Shown here: positions 4,910-45,771 of the stretch, in pieces
How the letters are laid out: the number at the start of each line of letters is the position of its first letter
Numbering within the stretch: the first letter of the stretch is position 1
IMG/VR virus record: IMGVR_UViG_3300045988_148808
Coordinates: 1-48,242 of that record
Strand: one strand, 5' to 3'
Source of the DNA: a virus
Length of the DNA stretch: 48,242 nt
Notes under the pieces: generated by a model
Seen by the model: only the letters and a program-made list of their open reading frames with translations
The model's database searches: none
What the model was told of the DNA's origin: nothing
Made by a program: the position numbers and the translations under genes

Positions 4910-5203
4910 TTAATTGAATGTGACGGTTTGACGTTGAACAAAAACATAGCTCACTTCGTAGTAAGCGTCACGGACAGGGAATCCGTTGTCAGCGAGCAGT
5001 TCCGGAATGACCAGATTGGCGCGATCAATGACAGCATTAAGGCTCTCACCTTCTGTTGCAAGCCCAAGTTCATCGCAGATAGCTACCCATACGTTTGCTT
5101 CCGGATCATATACCACTTCCACTTCAAAGAAGTGGTCAAGCCGGCGTGTGCTCACTATATGCGGTGCTTCTACTCCCTCTTTCACAAGTTCGTTTTTTTT
5201 CAT
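4910..5203 (-). CDS. hicB: HicB-like antitoxin (DUF1902-type)
   Basis: Likely start ATG 5203 with an AAGGAG SD. ...FEVEVVYDPEANVWVAICDELGLATEGESLNAVIDRANLVIPELL resembles the HicB N-terminal domain. Confidence 0.6.
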   Translation of the reverse strand: MKKNELVKEGVEAPHIVSTRRLDHFFEVEVVYDPEANVWVAICDELGLATEGESLNAVIDRANLVIPELLADNGFPVRDAYYEVSYVFVQRQTVTFN

Positions 5204-6309: not shown

Positions 6310-6350
6310 TTGGCGAGTATCTTACGGTGTTGAGGCGAAAGAAAAATATC

Positions 6351-7895
6351 ATGAAAAAAATACTGTTTGTATGTTTGTGTTCAATTTTTATTGTTGGTTG
6401 TGAAGTAGGAAAGCCTCCGCCTCCTTCGCTGAATGAAAATGCCGTTTGGTACACCAAGGAAATAACAAAACGTCGGATCCTTTCGTCAATTCTGAATGCC
6501 ACCAATGACGTGTCCGACACCATCAAACAAAGAACGTATGGACTTTACGATGTTGTTGACATAGAAGATATTAATTTTGTTTCCAAGCAAAACATTATTA
6601 ATGCCGAACGTCAATTTAAAGATAAAAAGTTTATAACAAGTGGAAAAGTTTACGATATAGGCCGTGGTGTATTTGGGCCTTACTTAATCGTATATTCTGA
6701 AAGGTCGCCTGCAGACGTTTTCGGGGCGGACTTCAAGGTAAAAGATGAATCTAGCCTTGGAAATGTACGGAAGGGACAACGTGTTTCACTGGCATGTGAA
6801 AAGATCAAGTTTTTGCCGTCGCGTGCTGATTGCGAAATGCTAGATGATCTAATAGCAAGAAAAGGGGATGCAGTAGATACGTTGGTAAACTCCATTTTGA
6901 ATGGAAAATCATCATGGGATGAAACATTTGATTTGCAGACGAAAAGAGTTTACTCGATCGCCAGCAAAATGCCCTCAGACAGTGTATGTTTTCATGCACC
7001 TGATGTGCCAGAATGTCGCAAGGACTATAAGCGGGCACAGGCTATTTATGAAAAAGAAACTGGCGATAAGGATGGTAGCGCTGATTTAAAAGAGCCTGTT
7101 TCCGGCGCAGCTGAATCACAAAATGAAGACAAAAACGGTAAAAAATCCGGTGCAGAAATTAGAGCGAATATCTGCGCTCATTTCATCGCCGACAACATAC
7201 ACAAAATGGCGATGACTCAGTTTGGATATGAAGCGAAATCTTTTTCCGTATCTGAAAAGGATATATATCCAGAGGCACCCAATATTTGGTATGAAGTAAA
7301 AGGCGCAAAACTGAAAGACAAATATGGAAAATGGCACGATGTGAAATTTTCGTGTTTCGTAAATCGAGAAACCAACGAAATATTTAATGATGTGGTGCTC
7401 ACTTTAAGCGAGAAACAGGGAAATGAACTGACACGGGAAAGGGACCTTTTTTTAACAGACGACCAATTACAGGAAGAAAAGCGTCAACAAAAACTGATTT
7501 ATATGGTTAATCCTGTTTTTGCTAAACCTGAAACCAGTTGGGCTTTCGCGCATCGGGATGATGTTCATCCGGTAGAAACGGCTCCTGCAACCGATGGATC
7601 AGATAACCAGCGAGCAAAAGCGTGTTATAAACAGGTGATAAAACACCTTACCCCTTCTCCGAAAGCCCAAAAACAATGGGTTGTTATTTCGGAAAGCATG
7701 AATGAAACGGAAGCGACATTTGTTGCGCAAAGACGAGGACATACCATTAACGTTGGCTGGTCAAAGGGTATGGGAAGCGACGCTCTTCAAATTTGCAGTG
7801 TGAGAGAAACTAACGCGGATGGAGTTGAGGTATTTAATGATGAAGGTTCTGATTTTGCCTCAGCGTCTTCCCCCGTTTTCTTTAAACAAAAATAG
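6351..7895 (+). CDS. large lipoprotein (514 aa) with an OB-fold-like (tRNA_anti-like) segment
   Basis: MKKILFVCLCSIFIVGC has a lipobox. ...FKDKKFITSGKVYDIGRGVFGPYLIVY...VRKGQRVSLACEKIKF is an OB-like pattern. The gene is visibly A+T-rich. Confidence 0.8.
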   Translation: MKKILFVCLCSIFIVGCEVGKPPPPSLNENAVWYTKEITKRRILSSILNATNDVSDTIKQRTYGLYDVVDIEDINFVSKQNIINAERQFKDKKFITSGKVYDIGRGVFGPYLIVYSERSPADVFGADFKVKDESSLGNVRKGQRVSLACEKIKFLPSRADCEMLDDLIARKGDAVDTLVNSILNGKSSWDETFDLQTKRVYSIASKMPSDSVCFHAPDVPECRKDYKRAQAIYEKETGDKDGSADLKEPVSGAAESQNEDKNGKKSGAEIRANICAHFIADNIHKMAMTQFGYEAKSFSVSEKDIYPEAPNIWYEVKGAKLKDKYGKWHDVKFSCFVNRETNEIFNDVVLTLSEKQGNELTRERDLFLTDDQLQEEKRQQKLIYMVNPVFAKPETSWAFAHRDDVHPVETAPATDGSDNQRAKACYKQVIKHLTPSPKAQKQWVVISESMNETEATFVAQRRGHTINVGWSKGMGSDALQICSVRETNADGVEVFNDEGSDFASASSPVFFKQK

Positions 7896-14421: not shown

Positions 14422-16464
14422 ATGCCTGAAGCATTGAACCGGTTCTATGGAATACCTCAATCAGCGCCAAAAGCAGAAAGAGTCATTACACAGAAAACAG
14501 AAACAGCGAAACCATCATCCATGACTGACCGCGAACTCGCCGCACAAGCCAAACGATATGACAACACGTTCAACGAAGGTGGTGAAGGATACAACCCGTA
14601 TCGTGTTGAACAAGAAAAGAGAAGCTGGGGTGCGTTACGGCGTTCCAGTACAGAAAGTGCCTTGAAGTCTTTTCCTGAAATGTATCTGGACAATCTTCCG
14701 GGAGCGCGTCAGTTTAATGAAGCGATGAAGCAAGGGAATATCGCTAAAGCGGATGAAGTGCTTGCCTCCAATCCGGCTCTTGCGAATTACGCCAAATGGT
14801 CGAGCGCTGGAGCAGAAACGGCTTACGGCATGAATCAGCGTAATGCCGCCAGAATGCTTAGAAACGGGAGCAGCTATGAAGAAGCAAGGCAGATTGCCGA
14901 GAAATCCGCCTATAACTGGGACAATTCCATGGGAACAACATTGACCTTTGATGCGGCGAGCAAGCGTCGCTTTGATGAAAACGGCTTCATGCACGTTGAA
15001 TCAAGCCATATCACCAAAGAGCAAGTGGTACCGTATCGCGGGCGAGAAATACCAGGCTGGCAAGAGCGTGGTCTCGATCCGGACAAGATTTATTTCGGTT
15101 ACCGACCGTCGGAAGAACTGCAAAAAGCGGTGGACACCTTCAACGGCTTGCCGATCATGCTGATGCATCACACGGTATCCGCCGACGATCCGAAGAAGGA
15201 GTATCAGGTCGGTTCCATGGCGACAAACGCGGTTTGGAACGCGCCATACGTCGACAACGGAATGATTTTTACGGATTCTGTTGGCATTGAGGCCGTCAAA
15301 AACGGTACGTGCAGGGAAATCAGCTGCGCATATCAGTATGACCCGGATTTCACGCCGGGTGTTTTCGATGATACGCCGTATGACTTCGTGATGCGGAATA
15401 TCAGGGGCAATCATGTTGCCATCGTGGAAGAGGGACGTGCAGGCCCGGATGTGGTCGTGGCAGATTCTTCCGAAAACTTGAAACCAAAAGGAGTAAAACA
15501 GCTTATGAGTATTCTCAAAGACTTCTTCCGCGGTGCACAAGACAGTGACCCGGGCATCGAAGCCGCGGAAGTCAATGCAGCACAAACCATTTTGGATTTG
15601 CACAAACGCGATCCCATTACCGGGGAAATTGTGGACATTACGACAGACGAGGATAAAAACGCCAAGATTCAGGAATTGATCAACCAATTTTCCGAAGTGC
15701 TGTCTCCGGAAGATTTGAAGAAATTTGAAGATAGCCTTACCGATCTCGCTTATTCCAAAGCAACTGGTGAAAGCGAAATTGCCCGGAAAATGGACGGGGA
15801 AGATGACGGGCTGAACACCGCCGAGGCCTACGCTTATGGCGAAAAGAAAGAACGCGAGCGCGAAGAACGGGAGGAAATGCGCGGTGGCAGGGATGCGACT
15901 CCCTTGAATACAGCGGAAGCTGTGGCCGCAGGTGAACGTCACGAGCGAGAAAAACTCATGCGCGAACACATGCGCGAACGGGCAGAAGATGCCTTGAAAA
16001 AATGCGGCATGGATGCCGAGCCGGATGCCGTGAAAGAAGCTTTCGCCAAAGGGTTCGCTTGGGGAATGCATGATGGCGAAAAGGACATGCGCAATCGCGC
16101 CGAACGCGAAAAACTGGATCGGGAACATGAACGGGAAGCGATGGAAAAACGCTATGCGGCGGATTCCGCAGCCCTGATAAAGAAAGTCGAACGATCCATT
16201 GCGGCCAAATTCGAGGCGGCAAGAGAGGTGGAAACCGCTATTGGAGCAGTTCGCCCGCTGGCCTTCGATAGTGCCGACGCTATTTATGGTTACGCACTTG
16301 CACAGATGGGACGATCAGGCGTCAACAAAGCGGCGGCTCGCGAAGTGTTCCGAGCCATTGTGGACACGCACAGACAAACGATGGCAATGGACGCAACCCC
16401 CTATCAGGACCGGAAATATACCGGAGAGTTCGCGGGATTGAAAAATCTTAAAATCGAAAGGTAA
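14422..16464 (+). CDS. prohead protease/scaffold protein (DUF2213-type core, E/R-rich coiled-coil C-terminus)
   Basis: ...RRFDENGFMHVESSHITKEQVVPYRGREI...GNHVAIVEEGRAGPDVVVADS matches the DUF2213 pattern. No SD in front of ATG 14422. Confidence 0.7.
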   Translation: MPEALNRFYGIPQSAPKAERVITQKTETAKPSSMTDRELAAQAKRYDNTFNEGGEGYNPYRVEQEKRSWGALRRSSTESALKSFPEMYLDNLPGARQFNEAMKQGNIAKADEVLASNPALANYAKWSSAGAETAYGMNQRNAARMLRNGSSYEEARQIAEKSAYNWDNSMGTTLTFDAASKRRFDENGFMHVESSHITKEQVVPYRGREIPGWQERGLDPDKIYFGYRPSEELQKAVDTFNGLPIMLMHHTVSADDPKKEYQVGSMATNAVWNAPYVDNGMIFTDSVGIEAVKNGTCREISCAYQYDPDFTPGVFDDTPYDFVMRNIRGNHVAIVEEGRAGPDVVVADSSENLKPKGVKQLMSILKDFFRGAQDSDPGIEAAEVNAAQTILDLHKRDPITGEIVDITTDEDKNAKIQELINQFSEVLSPEDLKKFEDSLTDLAYSKATGESEIARKMDGEDDGLNTAEAYAYGEKKEREREEREEMRGGRDATPLNTAEAVAAGERHEREKLMREHMRERAEDALKKCGMDAEPDAVKEAFAKGFAWGMHDGEKDMRNRAEREKLDREHEREAMEKRYAADSAALIKKVERSIAAKFEAAREVETAIGAVRPLAFDSADAIYGYALAQMGRSGVNKAAAREVFRAIVDTHRQTMAMDATPYQDRKYTGEFAGLKNLKIER

Positions 16465-43186: not shown

Positions 43187-43519
43187 TTAATCGTTGCAGG
43201 AGTAATATCGGGCCTGCTCTTCTGCTTCCCTGGCACGTTCGTCTTCTTCGTCTATGATTTGTACTGCCAAGTTTTCGGCGGCATCATTCCAGTACGCCCA
43301 GATGGAGTCTTTGATCTGGTCGCTTGTCATCTGGGAGGCGTCGAAAGTTTCCAGCGCTTCAGAGATGTTTTCCGGTGTAGCAGGGTTGAAATCGCCTGCA
43401 AGAAGCTCCTCAACAACCTTGTTGACCCGATCACAAAAATGGCCGTAGCGATCCTGCTGTCTTTCGTATGCGGCCAGATCAGCCATCACTGGACAAAAAT
43501 CTCTTGTTGTGTGTGCCAT
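43187..43519 (-). CDS. first early-left gene, hypothetical acidic protein
   Basis: GGAG SD; lies directly downstream of the predicted PL. Confidence 0.55.
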   Translation of the reverse strand: MAHTTRDFCPVMADLAAYERQQDRYGHFCDRVNKVVEELLAGDFNPATPENISEALETFDASQMTSDQIKDSIWAYWNDAAENLAVQIIDEEDERAREAEEQARYYSCND

Positions 43520-43552
43520 TTTTTACTCCGTCATTGTTTAGCTGATGAAGTA

Positions 43553-43581
43553 ATTATAAGATTACTGATATTATAAATCAA
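43553..43581 (-). promoter_or_regulatory. early-left promoter candidate (TTGATT-17 nt-TATAAT on the minus strand)
   Basis: Plus-strand AATCAA 43576-43581 and ATTATA 43553-43558. It abuts the palindrome ATAAGTA-N11-TACTTAT (43581-43605). Confidence 0.55.
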
Positions 43582-43652
43582 TAAGTATAATGATACTGTA
43601 CTTATGTTTTTCTGATAAAATTGATGCAGGTCAATTTTGAAGGGTAGGGTAA

Positions 43653-44081
43653 ATGACAGTAATTGCATGGGATGGGAAAACATTGGCAGCAGACAGACAG
43701 ATCACATCTGGTTACACAAAGAACAAACGGATAACGAAGATCAGGAAATATGGGAATGTGCTTTGTGGGGTGACGGGAGAAACAAAATATGCTGATGCTT
43801 TGTTTAAATGGGTAGAGGGCGGAAGAATCAAGGAGAGATTCCCGTCATTTAGCGACGACAATCAGGTCATGCTGGTGGTTATCGATGATAAAGACTTGAT
43901 CGAGTATTGGTCGTCGACCTTTGAAACAAAATATCCGCGTGATGAAAGAACATCATGGGGAAGCGGAAAAGAATTGGCTTTAGGCGCAATGGCGGCTGGG
44001 GCTGACGCAAAAAAGGCGGTAGAAATCGCCTGCGAATACGATCTGTATTGTGGAGGAGGGGTTGATGTTGTCGAAGCGTAA
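43653..44081 (+). CDS. HslV/proteasome-beta-like Ntn-hydrolase (142 aa)
   Basis: MTVIAWDGKTLAADRQ... has Thr after Met. ...TSWGSGKELALGAMAAGADAKKAVEIACEYD... matches the HslV-like motif layout. Confidence 0.65.
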   Translation: MTVIAWDGKTLAADRQITSGYTKNKRITKIRKYGNVLCGVTGETKYADALFKWVEGGRIKERFPSFSDDNQVMLVVIDDKDLIEYWSSTFETKYPRDERTSWGSGKELALGAMAAGADAKKAVEIACEYDLYCGGGVDVVEA

Positions 44082-44445
44082 TTTGTCAACAGAACGGGTG
44101 ACGAAAGTGGAGTTGATCCCGGATATCGCAGTCAAGAACAATGTTGTGTTCCAACTGAACTGCGATCTTGGTATCAAGGAATTTGCTGTCCAGTTGGGTA
44201 CATCAATGGGGGAAACAGTTGGTTATCTTATATTTAGCGGAGATGGGAAACACTTTGAAGCAACGAAGTTAATTTCTCAGGATGAGAAAGTGCCGCACAA
44301 ATTAACTGTGTTGAGAGGGACACTATGGTCTTACCCGGAAGTGATTTCAAATCAGAAATTAGCTTGTCTTTCAGAGACTGATCCGTATTTTGACTCTGAT
44401 TTATGGCGTAAATCAGTTGAGCAAGTGTGTTCTCATGAATTTTGA
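44065..44445 (+). CDS. hypothetical protein, partner of the HslV-like gene
   Basis: GGAGGAGG SD. Overlaps the HslV-like 3' end and overlaps the convergent ORF 44234..44737 by 212 nt, so it is uncertain. Confidence 0.4.
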   Translation: MLSKRNLSTERVTKVELIPDIAVKNNVVFQLNCDLGIKEFAVQLGTSMGETVGYLIFSGDGKHFEATKLISQDEKVPHKLTVLRGTLWSYPEVISNQKLACLSETDPYFDSDLWRKSVEQVCSHEF

Positions 44446-44737
44446 CGGTAATTGTGTCGATATTGGCTCTAACACCACCTTCCTGGCTGATGTAGTCCCA
44501 TCCGTCAGCAGTTAGTTCGGGAGGGAATGCGCAAGAGTATTTGCCATCTACACTTCGGATGATGTGACTGACAACAAGCCCTTTTTGCTCAAGATATTGG
44601 AGATTGACAATATACTTTTTCTGGTTTTCGTTGGCTTTTTCTTGGAACCACTCGACACTACCCATGTGATCTGGTGCGGTTTCGGCTAATTTTTGAAGAA
44701 TTTCAATGTAGTAATCTCTCTCTAATAGCGGTTCCAT
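44234..44737 (-). CDS. DUF2513-like wHTH protein with a C-terminal helical extension, co-oriented downstream of cI
   Basis: ...KKYIVNLQYLEQKGLVVSHII...PELTADGWDYISQEGGV... parallels the 4326..4703 product. Starts 3 nt after the cI stop. Confidence 0.6.
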   Translation of the reverse strand: MEPLLERDYYIEILQKLAETAPDHMGSVEWFQEKANENQKKYIVNLQYLEQKGLVVSHIIRSVDGKYSCAFPPELTADGWDYISQEGGVRANIDTITVKIHENTLAQLIYAINQSQNTDQSLKDKLISDLKSLPGKTIVSLSTQLICAALSHPEKLTSLLQSVSHLR

Positions 44738-44740
44738 ATG

Positions 44741-45457
44741 TCAGTTCCCGAAGTTCTTGAAATTCATCGGCAGGGCGCGCAACACTTTGCCAATGATTCG
44801 TGTTTCGTCTGGTTTTTCGCTCCAGAGCCAAGACGCATATTTTTCATTGTCAGATTGGACGAGAATATTTCTGCCTGCAAGAGAAAGTCTCTTACAAAGT
44901 AATTCACCACCGTGCAGAATGATATATATCCCTTCGCCTTTGTACTCAGTGGCGACTGTATCGACAAAAAGCAGATCATTCGGATTGATGGTGGGTACCA
45001 TGCTGTCTTTTGCAGCAAGAATGACCTTTATATTTCCTGCTCTATTCAAATTTCCGATTAATTCCTGTGCTGTTTTGCTGGACATGACCAGACGCTGAAC
45101 AATCTCAGGATAATCAGGATTAAGCAAACCAGTTCCACAAGCCGCACGAACATCGAGTAAATCGTAAACGACACTGTTTCCATATTTTGATGTACGTGGT
45201 ATCAGGTCAAGCGGCCCATCTTCTTGTTGTGCGTCGTCTTTTTGGTTGTTAGGGTACTTGGGTCCCAAGCCTGTTTCCAACCATAAGGCGTTTACTCCCA
45301 GTTTGGCCGCTATTGCGGCAACGTAAGTAGTTTTTTACGAGGCGCCGCTTTCAAGTTGTGAGATAGCAGATTGTTTTATGCCAACAGCATCCGCAAGCTG
45401 TTGTTGAGACAGCCCTTTTAAATTTCTTTCTTCTTTTAATCTTCGTCCAATATTCAT
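44741..45457 (-). pseudogene. cI: CI-type repressor (XRE HTH + S24 peptidase) with an in-frame TAA at codon 41
   Basis: MNIGRRLKEERNLKGLSQQQLADAVGIKQSAISQLESGAS-TAA(45335-45337)-KTTYVAAIAAKLGVNALWLETG... then ...AAKDSMVPTINPNDLLFVD...LCKRL. Confidence 0.85.
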
Positions 45458-45493
45458 ATGAGCATCCTAATACAAAAAATGATAAATATTTTG

Positions 45494-45522
45494 TTGACTT
45501 AAAATATAAGCATGCGCATAAT
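45494..45522 (+). promoter_or_regulatory. early-right promoter candidate (TTGACT-17 nt-CATAAT)
   Basis: -35 at 45494-45499, -10 at 45517-45522. The cro ATG begins 7 nt after the -10. The 12-mer AATATAAGCATG is repeated at 45503 and 45520. Confidence 0.6.
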
Positions 45523-45528
45523 ATAAGC

Positions 45529-45771
45529 ATGATTGCTCAATTAATAACCACCAAACTGATCGAAAAAGGATTCCGTCAAGAGGAAATCGCAAAGCACCTT
45601 GGCTGTACCCAGTCAAATGTGAGCTTGCTACATACAGGCAAGACGAAAAGTCCATCTTTCGATATTTGCTTGGCTTTAATCAAGTTGGCAAAAGAGAACG
45701 GTATCGAAGTACCGGGAATTGAATTTATGGAAAAAGAAGCCCGTGAACGGTCAGATATGGAAGAAAAATGA
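45529..45771 (+). CDS. cro: Cro-like HTH repressor
   Basis: Divergent from cI. ...KGFRQEEIAKHLGCTQSNVSLLHTGKTKSP... is an HTH. No SD or leader. Confidence 0.7.
   Translation: MIAQLITTKLIEKGFRQEEIAKHLGCTQSNVSLLHTGKTKSPSFDICLALIKLAKENGIEVPGIEFMEKEARERSDMEEK

Follow-up and report, generated by a model that had tools for sequence, protein, structure and literature searches.

Introduction

Proteasome-like N-terminal-nucleophile (Ntn) hydrolases were surveyed by Fuchs, Alva and Lupas (Bioinformatics 2021; PMC8665760), who described 22 new proteasome homologs, the PPH family included. PPH proteins, of 'just ~140 residues', come from Caudovirales and also from host genomes, where phage genes flank them, and according to the describing paper PPH is the first truly viral member of the proteasome family (PMC8665760). 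In the cluster map of that study PPH radiates from the BPH cluster, next to HslV; PPH and its relative RPC are the only members besides connectase without one flanking helix (H2), and 324 PPH sequences, with WP_042125023.1 as a reference, were known in 2021 (PMC8665760). Here we analyse a gene of this kind at positions 43653..44081 of a 48,242-nucleotide (nt) stretch of viral DNA (IMG/VR record IMGVR_UViG_3300045988_148808, positions 1 to 48,242), referred to below as the window.

Experimental precedent comes nearest with Rrp (SP_1145) of Streptococcus pneumoniae TIGR4, a 44.8-kDa proteasome-like protease carried on a phage-like element. In vitro it needs no ATPase to cut back the N-terminal extension of ribosomal protein bL27, its specificity is relaxed, and expressing it markedly slowed the growth of E. 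coli (bioRxiv 10.64898/2026.08.10.744006). Rrp is the only tested proteasome homolog borne on a mobile genetic element (MGE) that we found.

The gene and its protein family

The main element has the following position and assignment:

43653..44081, plus strand: PPH-family proteasome/HslV-like Ntn-hydrolase gene, 142 amino acids (phrog_1040, AlphaFold2, Foldseek, residue conservation, substitution counts)

A preliminary description of the window, made from its letters alone, had proposed an HslV/proteasome-beta-like Ntn hydrolase here, and the open reading frame (ORF) is present with the translation and motifs that it quoted. The 142-amino-acid protein opens with MTVIAWDGKTLAADRQ, contains the motif ...ITKIRKYG..., which includes Lys29, and carries G103-S104-G105 in the segment ...SWGSGKELALGAMAAGADAKKAVEIACEYD... 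An in-frame TAA at 43650-43652 stands immediately 5' of the ATG, and an N-terminal extension is therefore impossible; a purine run, AGGG, lies 4-7 nt 5' of the start. Frame-specific substitutions were counted against L001, a relative at 85% DNA identity. The PPH frame showed 44 synonymous (S) and 19 nonsynonymous (N) differences at an expected synonymous fraction of 24% (p=4e-14). The ORF is a real gene under purifying selection.

Among the PHROGs the protein matched phrog_1040, 'peptidase HslV family', with E=1e-37 over residues 1-141. The AlphaFold2 model, built with 46 homologs in the alignment, reached a predicted local distance difference test (pLDDT) score of 94.4 and a predicted template-modelling (pTM) score of 0.89. 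When this model was compared with the PDB using Foldseek, the top matches were solely HslV, BPH and 20S beta chains, at probability 1.0 and template-modelling scores for the query (TMq) of 0.72-0.80; the best was HslV 3ty6 (E=5e-10, TMq 0.78), followed by BPH 5ovs (E=3e-9). The profile search and AlphaFold/Foldseek comparison that the preliminary description had suggested as a check thus returned an Ntn fold with HslV and BPH among its matches. Among predicted viral structures, the best full-length match was a 146-amino-acid 'proteasome subunit beta' of Caulobacter phage CcrBL9 (TM 0.84/0.82), and the remaining top matches were longer phage proteins of ~190 or 275-280 amino acids; the closest viral models also include Caulobacter phage proteins labelled 'Ntn hydrolase'.

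Sequence comparison reached the same families at lower significance. With the PPH family profile, chains of HslV, 20S beta and BPH were matched at E=2.5e-5 to 1e-2, phmmer with the window protein as query reaches HslV among PDB sequences at E ~0.01, and Pfam PF00227 was matched by 16 of 46 relatives at E<=0.01 (best 1.1e-6). In the model, DSSP assigns a single helix (44-55) between strands 36-42 and 72-77 and a final strand at 137-141, and HslV alignments to the protein require insertions where H2 sits in HslV. The protein had been described beforehand as shorter than HslV, and the difference can now be located: what it has lost is H2, the C-terminal end and four first-hairpin residues. Its relatives are 137-162 amino acids long. 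We conclude that the product is confidently predicted to adopt the proteasome-beta/HslV-type Ntn-hydrolase fold.

The protein shows a length of this order without an extra C-terminal domain, no H2, the catalytic residues, no propeptide and a phage context. On these grounds it appears to be a member of the PPH family already described and not new in kind, membership being judged by these features. The novelty implied in the preliminary description accordingly falls away, both PPH (PMC8665760) and PHROG 1040 having been there before. A suitable annotation should read 'PPH-family proteasome-like Ntn hydrolase', not HslV.

Active site and proposed activity

Active-site residues were counted in an alignment of 254 relatives drawn from the best matches of a word-indexed and an exhaustive search. 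Residue 2 is Thr in 204 relatives and Ser in the other 50, and in 248 a lone Met precedes it, a pattern that fits the proposal that the Thr following Met is the candidate nucleophile. Asp14 is found in all 254 relatives, Lys29 and Gly42 in 250 each, Gly103 in 254 and Gly105 in 252; in the second glycine-rich loop, Cys133 is kept in 228 (Ser/Thr in 22 others), Gly134 in 254 and Gly136 in 253. HMMER alignments place Asp14 and Lys29 on Asp17 and Lys33 of HslV and 20S, and G-S-G on the G-S-G of HslV, so the Lys-containing segment and the GSG layout remarked on earlier both have HslV counterparts. The stretch D130-x-x-C133-G-G resembles the Asp166-x-x-Ser169-Gly-Gly loop of the proteasome. Trp53, Pro64, Asp7 and Gly8 are essentially invariant among PPH relatives, family-specific and without an HslV counterpart. 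Because the fold is confident, Thr/Ser2 and Asp14 are invariant and Lys29 occurs in 250 of the 254, we consider the HslV-like Ntn-hydrolase call correct.

Our preferred reading, held with moderate confidence, is that PPH is an active peptidase that has Thr as its nucleophile, carries no propeptide and needs neither a dedicated ATPase nor a fixed partner. It would be synthesised without a propeptide, and the host methionine aminopeptidase would strip Met1 and expose Thr2, with its hydroxyl serving as the nucleophile and its free amine as the base. Asp14 and Lys29 (equivalent to Asp17/Lys33), Gly42 as a putative part of the oxyanion hole, and the G103-S104-G105 and C133-G-x-G136 loops would finish the active site. 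Its genomic context suggests a self-sufficient peptidase that may act on a host or phage protein and, in the rightward operon of this phage, has a small orphan ORF probably translationally coupled to it.

Several observations weigh against this reading. The window protein gave no match to Pfam PF00227 even at E<=1, and NCBIfam NF003964 (HslV) scored 17.2 bits against a cut-off of 137, over residues 9-55 only; the partial 17-bit NCBIfam matches, to HslV and archaeal proteasome beta, lie well under the cut-offs. Ser104 is kept in 171 of the 254 relatives and is otherwise, in about a third, Cys, Ala, Thr or Gly. Isolated proteasome/HslV subunits are poorly active outside rings, and PPH is without H2. 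Full-text literature searches found no experimental study of PPH. Lastly, in profile alignments to HslV, BPH and 20S beta, Thr2 faces canonical residues 3-5 and not Thr1, because these alignments run ungapped across the first hairpin and the Thr-to-Asp spacing is 12 residues in PPH versus 16 in HslV, BPH and 20S beta.

As to the profiles, the relationship to PF00227 is real and lies beyond Pfam's reach for the window sequence. As to the nucleophile, the simplest reconciliation would be a first hairpin that is two residues shorter per strand and keeps Thr2 at the Thr1 position. We place Thr2 there because of three points, all of them indirect, which tempers the reading: a shortened hairpin fits the DSSP assignment of the N-terminus (strand 3-6, loop 7-9, strand 10-14), Fuchs et al., in their structure-guided alignment, give every homolog a Thr1/Ser1 (PMC8665760), and the N-terminus is absolutely conserved. 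Thr2 is a credible N-terminal nucleophile.

Family size and genomic context

An exhaustive profile search of 1.84 billion cluster representatives returned 10,761 proteins at E<=1e-3, 6,942 at 1e-10 and 913 at 1e-30, where clusters are at 50% identity and the count at E<=1e-3 may include other proteasome-family proteins. Nearly all of the best 150 matches of this search begin at residue 1. The word-indexed search gave 358 homologs, and PPH relatives are encoded on 417 IMG/VR contigs.

Neighbourhoods were compared by all-against-all clustering of the ORFs within 2.5 kb of PPH at 88 loci, which form 59 groups at >=80% PPH identity. No conserved neighbour emerged, as no ORF family occurred in more than 12 of the 88 loci, and the adjacent co-directional genes fell into at least 17 families downstream and at least 19 upstream, plus many singletons. 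Annotated neighbours include the head-tail adaptor Ad1 (upstream), the head closure protein Hc1 (downstream), major head and scaffold genes nearby and the large terminase, while in freshwater phages PPH stands beside DNA polymerase A, a PDDEXK nuclease and an SNF2 helicase. The gene is thus found in head-connector, terminase, replication and immunity modules. The preliminary description had presented the immunity region as the kind of slot in which such a gene is kept; across the 88 loci the gene sits in many different modules, and the immunity position is confined to the window and its close relatives, for which reason we regard the slot as a property of the lineage and not of the family. Since PPH is a single gene scattered among unrelated modules without a conserved neighbour, its product is most likely a stand-alone accessory peptidase that acts on its own rather than as one half of a two-gene system or as a client of HslU.

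One recurrent arrangement was seen in ~10% of the viral loci (L036, L037, L045, L062, L083 and others, at about position 5000), where PPH lies between Ad1 and Hc1. This Ad1-PPH-Hc1 block lies downstream of the scaffold and major head genes, in a setting unlike that of the window.

In GTDB genomes, 24 loci were found in prophages or metagenome-assembled genomes (MAGs), mostly of Burkholderiales and other Proteobacteria, all at most 43% identical to the window protein except for one 57-residue fragment. None of them is the host of the window phage. Identical PPH copies were found on metagenomic contigs only, of up to 52.6 kb; the PPH region had no megablast or tblastn match in GenBank phages and none by megablast in complete E. 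coli genomes.

The downstream reading frame and an antisense gene

Two further features adjoin or overlap the end of the PPH gene:

44065..44445, plus strand: coupled downstream ORF, 126 amino acids, lineage-restricted orphan (Shine-Dalgarno sequence GGAGGAGG, 17-nt overlap)

44234..44737, minus strand: phrog_3983 gene, 167 amino acids (E=5e-32, residues 5-162; substitution counts)

The second ORF had been put forward as a partner of PPH that overlaps its end behind a Shine-Dalgarno sequence. Both signals are present: GGAGGAGG at 44051-44058 precedes the ATG at 44065, and the overlap with the PPH end is 17 nt. What had gone unmentioned is the 167-aa gene on the other strand, to which the last 212 nt of the ORF are antisense. 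This gene is the last of the cI-side operon, its 3' 212 nt overlapping the ORF convergently. By tblastn its product matches a protein of Acinetobacter phage AbIPP1, the sole relative in GenBank phages, annotated 'putative transcriptional regulator'.

The substitution counts against L001 divide the downstream ORF in two. Its own frame gives S=19/N=8 in 44082-44233 (p=2e-6) and S=3/N=14 in 44234-44445, which is not significant; in the latter interval the minus-strand frame gives S=12/N=5 (p=2e-4), and outside the overlap the 167-aa gene gives S=37/N=12 (p=2e-14). Divergence from L001 is 8% in the overlap 44234..44445 versus 15-18% in the flanks. Codons 1-56 of the ORF behave as coding, and codons 57-126 are without own-frame constraint. 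Gene callers pick either this ORF or the 167-aa gene on different contigs.

The ORF had no match in Pfam, PHROG, NCBIfam or PADLOC, and only 8 homologs were found in 5.8 billion clusters, all at least 78% identical; its AlphaFold2 model, with a pLDDT of 44, is not confident. One relative, L088, has had its immunity genes replaced; its homology to the window stops right after the stop codon of the ORF, a junction that truncates the 167-aa gene and retains PPH and the ORF. In our reading, the ORF is a real, young, coupled small gene whose N-terminal third to half is functional and whose tail has run into its neighbour. It is not a general PPH partner, and the partnership proposed earlier does not extend beyond a few relatives at least 78% identical, with coding constraint in the first 56 codons only.

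A 1.4-kb metagenomic contig (P0265) encodes a 97-aa protein that fuses the +1 frame of the PPH 5' region to the downstream ORF; relative to window positions 43637..44240, this looks like a ~280-nt deletion of most of PPH. This may be a hint of a dispensable PPH, or else an artefact of assembly.

Alternative explanations

PPH rings might dock onto host HslU, displace or poison HslV and redirect ATP-dependent degradation to targets useful to the phage. HslV is indeed among the best structural matches, no ATPase is encoded by the phage, so that a host one would be needed for folded substrates, and PPH has kept helices H3 and H4, the site of ring-ring contacts in HslV and 20S, with strong conservation at A109, G116, A119, A122 and V123. 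We nevertheless consider such hijacking improbable: docking is made less likely by the missing H2 and by the presence of PPH in Actinobacteria, for which Table 1 of Fuchs et al. lists PPH and does not list HslV (PMC8665760). The loss of H2 and of the C-terminal segment means that the surface equivalent to the cap or ATPase face is remodelled, and BPH, an equally close structural match, has no known regulating unfoldase (PMC8665760). PPH also occurs in MAGs labelled Gaiellales, Obscuribacterales and Saccharibacteria, where the binning of phage contigs is unreliable. Alternatively, the fold may have been kept and catalysis lost, with an N-terminus two to three residues short of Thr1 and a protein that caps or titrates a host protease or regulator. 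The ungapped profile alignments and the Thr-to-Asp spacing discussed above are what such a pseudo-enzyme or decoy would explain. Inactive homologs such as the 20S alpha subunits, however, lose their catalytic residues, whereas Thr/Ser2, the exact N-terminal length, Asp14, Lys29, Gly42 and both Gly-rich loops are conserved in essentially all PPH relatives; and if the four-residue difference corresponds to two residues off each hairpin strand, the geometry would be preserved. We therefore hold the decoy to be very unlikely. A role in specific processing, as a transpeptidase or ligase in the manner of connectase, or as an amidase on a non-protein substrate, seems unlikely to us. Connectase is a monomeric, sequence-specific ligase with a proteasome-like fold (PMC8665760), the invariant Trp53, Pro64 and Asp7-Gly8 could form a specificity pocket, and the head-connector position seen in ~10% of loci would suit site-specific processing of a virion protein; yet the predicted secondary structure shows no insertion covering the active site as in connectase, the catalytic constellation is of the plain proteasome type, and no conserved candidate substrate gene adjoins PPH.

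The remaining alternative makes PPH and the 126-aa ORF a two-gene prophage module, expressed from the prophage like rexAB or sieB of lambda-type phages, in which an enzyme is combined with its inhibitor or adaptor, or which works as a toxin-antitoxin-like exclusion or lysogeny-modulating pair. In every close relative the two genes stay side by side, also where the immunity genes around them have been exchanged, as at the L088 mosaic junction right after the stop codon of the ORF; the Shine-Dalgarno sequence and 17-nt overlap suggest coupled translation; purifying selection acts on codons 1-56 (p=2e-6); and Rrp, a related MGE-borne protease, is toxic on over-expression in E. coli. The ORF is nevertheless restricted to relatives at least 78% identical, whereas PPH exists in thousands of lineages without it; its last 70 codons are without constraint in their own frame, its model is of low confidence (pLDDT 44), and PADLOC models matched neither PPH nor the ORF at E<=0.1. 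The contig P0265, moreover, appears to retain the ORF with most of PPH deleted. We regard this as quite unlikely. There is little chance, too, in our estimate, that the pair forms a dedicated switch or exclusion module in this lambdoid lineage, its transcription running head-on into the cI operon at the 3' side; in that case an ATPase-independent mini-proteasome might cleave the phage repressor, a host defence protein or a protein of a superinfecting phage, and the fast-evolving small protein might be its adaptor or inhibitor. The self-sufficient peptidase remains the reading that we prefer.

The phage genome around the locus

The window is a complete temperate-phage genome with a G+C content of 49%. 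Its genes include a DnaD-like replication protein, a D12 methylase, terminase, portal, a DUF2213 head protein and an integrase, and further DUF2303, ERF, SSB and cI/cro. In a whole-window megablast against GenBank phages only two short matches were obtained, to the terminase and the methyltransferase. The earlier statement that no HslU-like ATPase is encoded agrees with a crude Walker-A and Pfam test of the window ORFs: a Walker-A motif occurs in only two ORFs of at least 150 amino acids, a 240-aa protein without a Pfam match and the D12 methyltransferase, neither of which is HslU-like, and none of ten large window ORFs matched AAA+ families.

Candidate control elements near the locus are as follows:

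43553..43581, minus strand: sigma-70-like site TTGATT-17-TATAAT, candidate PL (consensus scan, 10/12)

45494-45522, plus strand: sigma-70-like site that fits PR before the cro-like gene (consensus scan)

43616..43639, no strand assigned: perfect 8-bp inverted repeat AAAATTGA-N6-TCAATTTT (palindrome scan), ending 14 nt upstream of the PPH start

Candidate PL points left, towards a 110-aa gene and the ERF/SSB operon, and is divergent from PPH. The layout proposed in the preliminary description is therefore as drawn, with the site (43581 to 43553, minus strand) facing away from the pair and the pair converging on the cI-side operon: PPH heads a short rightward operon, with the candidate leftward early promoter on one side and the cI operon's end on the other. 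Because the number of sites in the region is not above that in shuffled sequences, these promoter sites are a lead only. No plus-strand promoter upstream of PPH passed the consensus scan; by eye, a weak extended -10-like element, TGaTAAAAT, lies near 43603-43611. The inverted repeat could be an operator or a hairpin in the 5' untranslated region. It is not conserved in L001 or L008, which have other palindromes there (GTAATTATAATTAC, TTACAAAAATTGTAA). A comparison of 43500-43660 with 45440-45540 for shared operators found no common word of 9 nt or more, and a search for terminators between the convergent operons found none beyond chance.

Three other genes of the phage deserve mention. The cI-like repressor gene at 44741..45457 (minus strand) contains an in-frame TAA at 45335..45337 (...QLESGAS*KTTYVAAIAAKLGVNALWLETGLGP...), which divides the gene into a 40-aa helix-turn-helix portion and an S24 peptidase portion; a nonsense mutation of the clear-plaque type, a sequencing error or some other cause could account for it. 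A 522-aa ORF at 6327..7895 (plus strand), with the replication/Nin-type genes on one side and the terminase on the other, encodes a lipoprotein-like signal peptide (...CSIFIVGC), matches a tRNA_anti-like OB-fold weakly and may be a moron. The head module encodes a 680-aa protein at 14422..16464 (plus strand) with DUF2213 at residues 182-349, which we take to be the phage's own prohead protease or scaffold-type protein. A prohead-protease role for PPH in this phage was considered and rejected, given its early/immunity position and the DUF2213 protein that the head module owns.

Comparison with known systems

Among the Ntn hydrolases of the proteasome-beta/HslV/BPH group, no branch smaller than PPH is known; the family was described from sequence, and its function is inferred. 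The window adds no new kind of protein. By the exhaustive search, metagenomes contain far more PPH than the 324 sequences of 2021 suggested, with ~10,800 clusters at 50% identity and E<=1e-3. The window puts PPH at a genetically interpretable spot of a lambda-like phage, flanked by the early-left promoter and the repressor operon. An interpretable position, together with a family that has no fixed partner, leaves fewer hypotheses worth testing. The switch or exclusion module, if true, would provide the first function for the whole PPH family.

With the PPH proteins described by Fuchs et al. the window protein shares a length of ~140 residues, H1, H3 and H4 without H2, the lack of a propeptide, a Thr/Ser right after Met, and the equivalents of Asp17, Lys33 and Gly47, as well as carriage by tailed phages and prophages, mostly of Proteobacteria. 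It shows no family-defining difference from PPH, and its position alone is peculiar: the first gene of a rightward operon, followed by a coupled orphan. RPC is set apart from PPH by an extra C-terminal domain.

HslV (ClpQ) supplies the best matches among solved structures (3ty6, 1m4y, 6kui and 1g3i, TMq 0.72-0.80), and the two share the N-terminal Thr/Ser nucleophile chemistry, the Lys33 and G-S-G equivalents and the lack of alpha-type subunits. In contrast to HslV, with its ~175 residues, PPH has 142 and is without H2, the C-terminal segment and four first-hairpin residues, and its Cys133-Gly-x-Gly is nearer to the Ser169-Gly-Gly loop of 20S. An HslV equivalog is recognised by a double hexameric ring and by its partnership with HslU in an hslVU operon, whereas here hslU is neither adjacent to PPH nor elsewhere in the phage by the crude Walker-A/Pfam test, and the neighbours of PPH are the orphan ORF and immunity genes.

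BPH of Thiobacillus denitrificans (5ovs), the second-best structural match (E=3e-9), differs in its ~200 residues, four helices, long acidic pore loop and double heptameric ring, and in being chromosomal and not viral. With Rrp, PPH shares the nature of an MGE-borne, proteasome-like Ntn protease, and relatives of Rrp are likewise found in phage genomes; compared by description only, Rrp is larger, has extra domains, is closest to Anbu and 20S beta and not to HslV and BPH, and comes from a Firmicute host.

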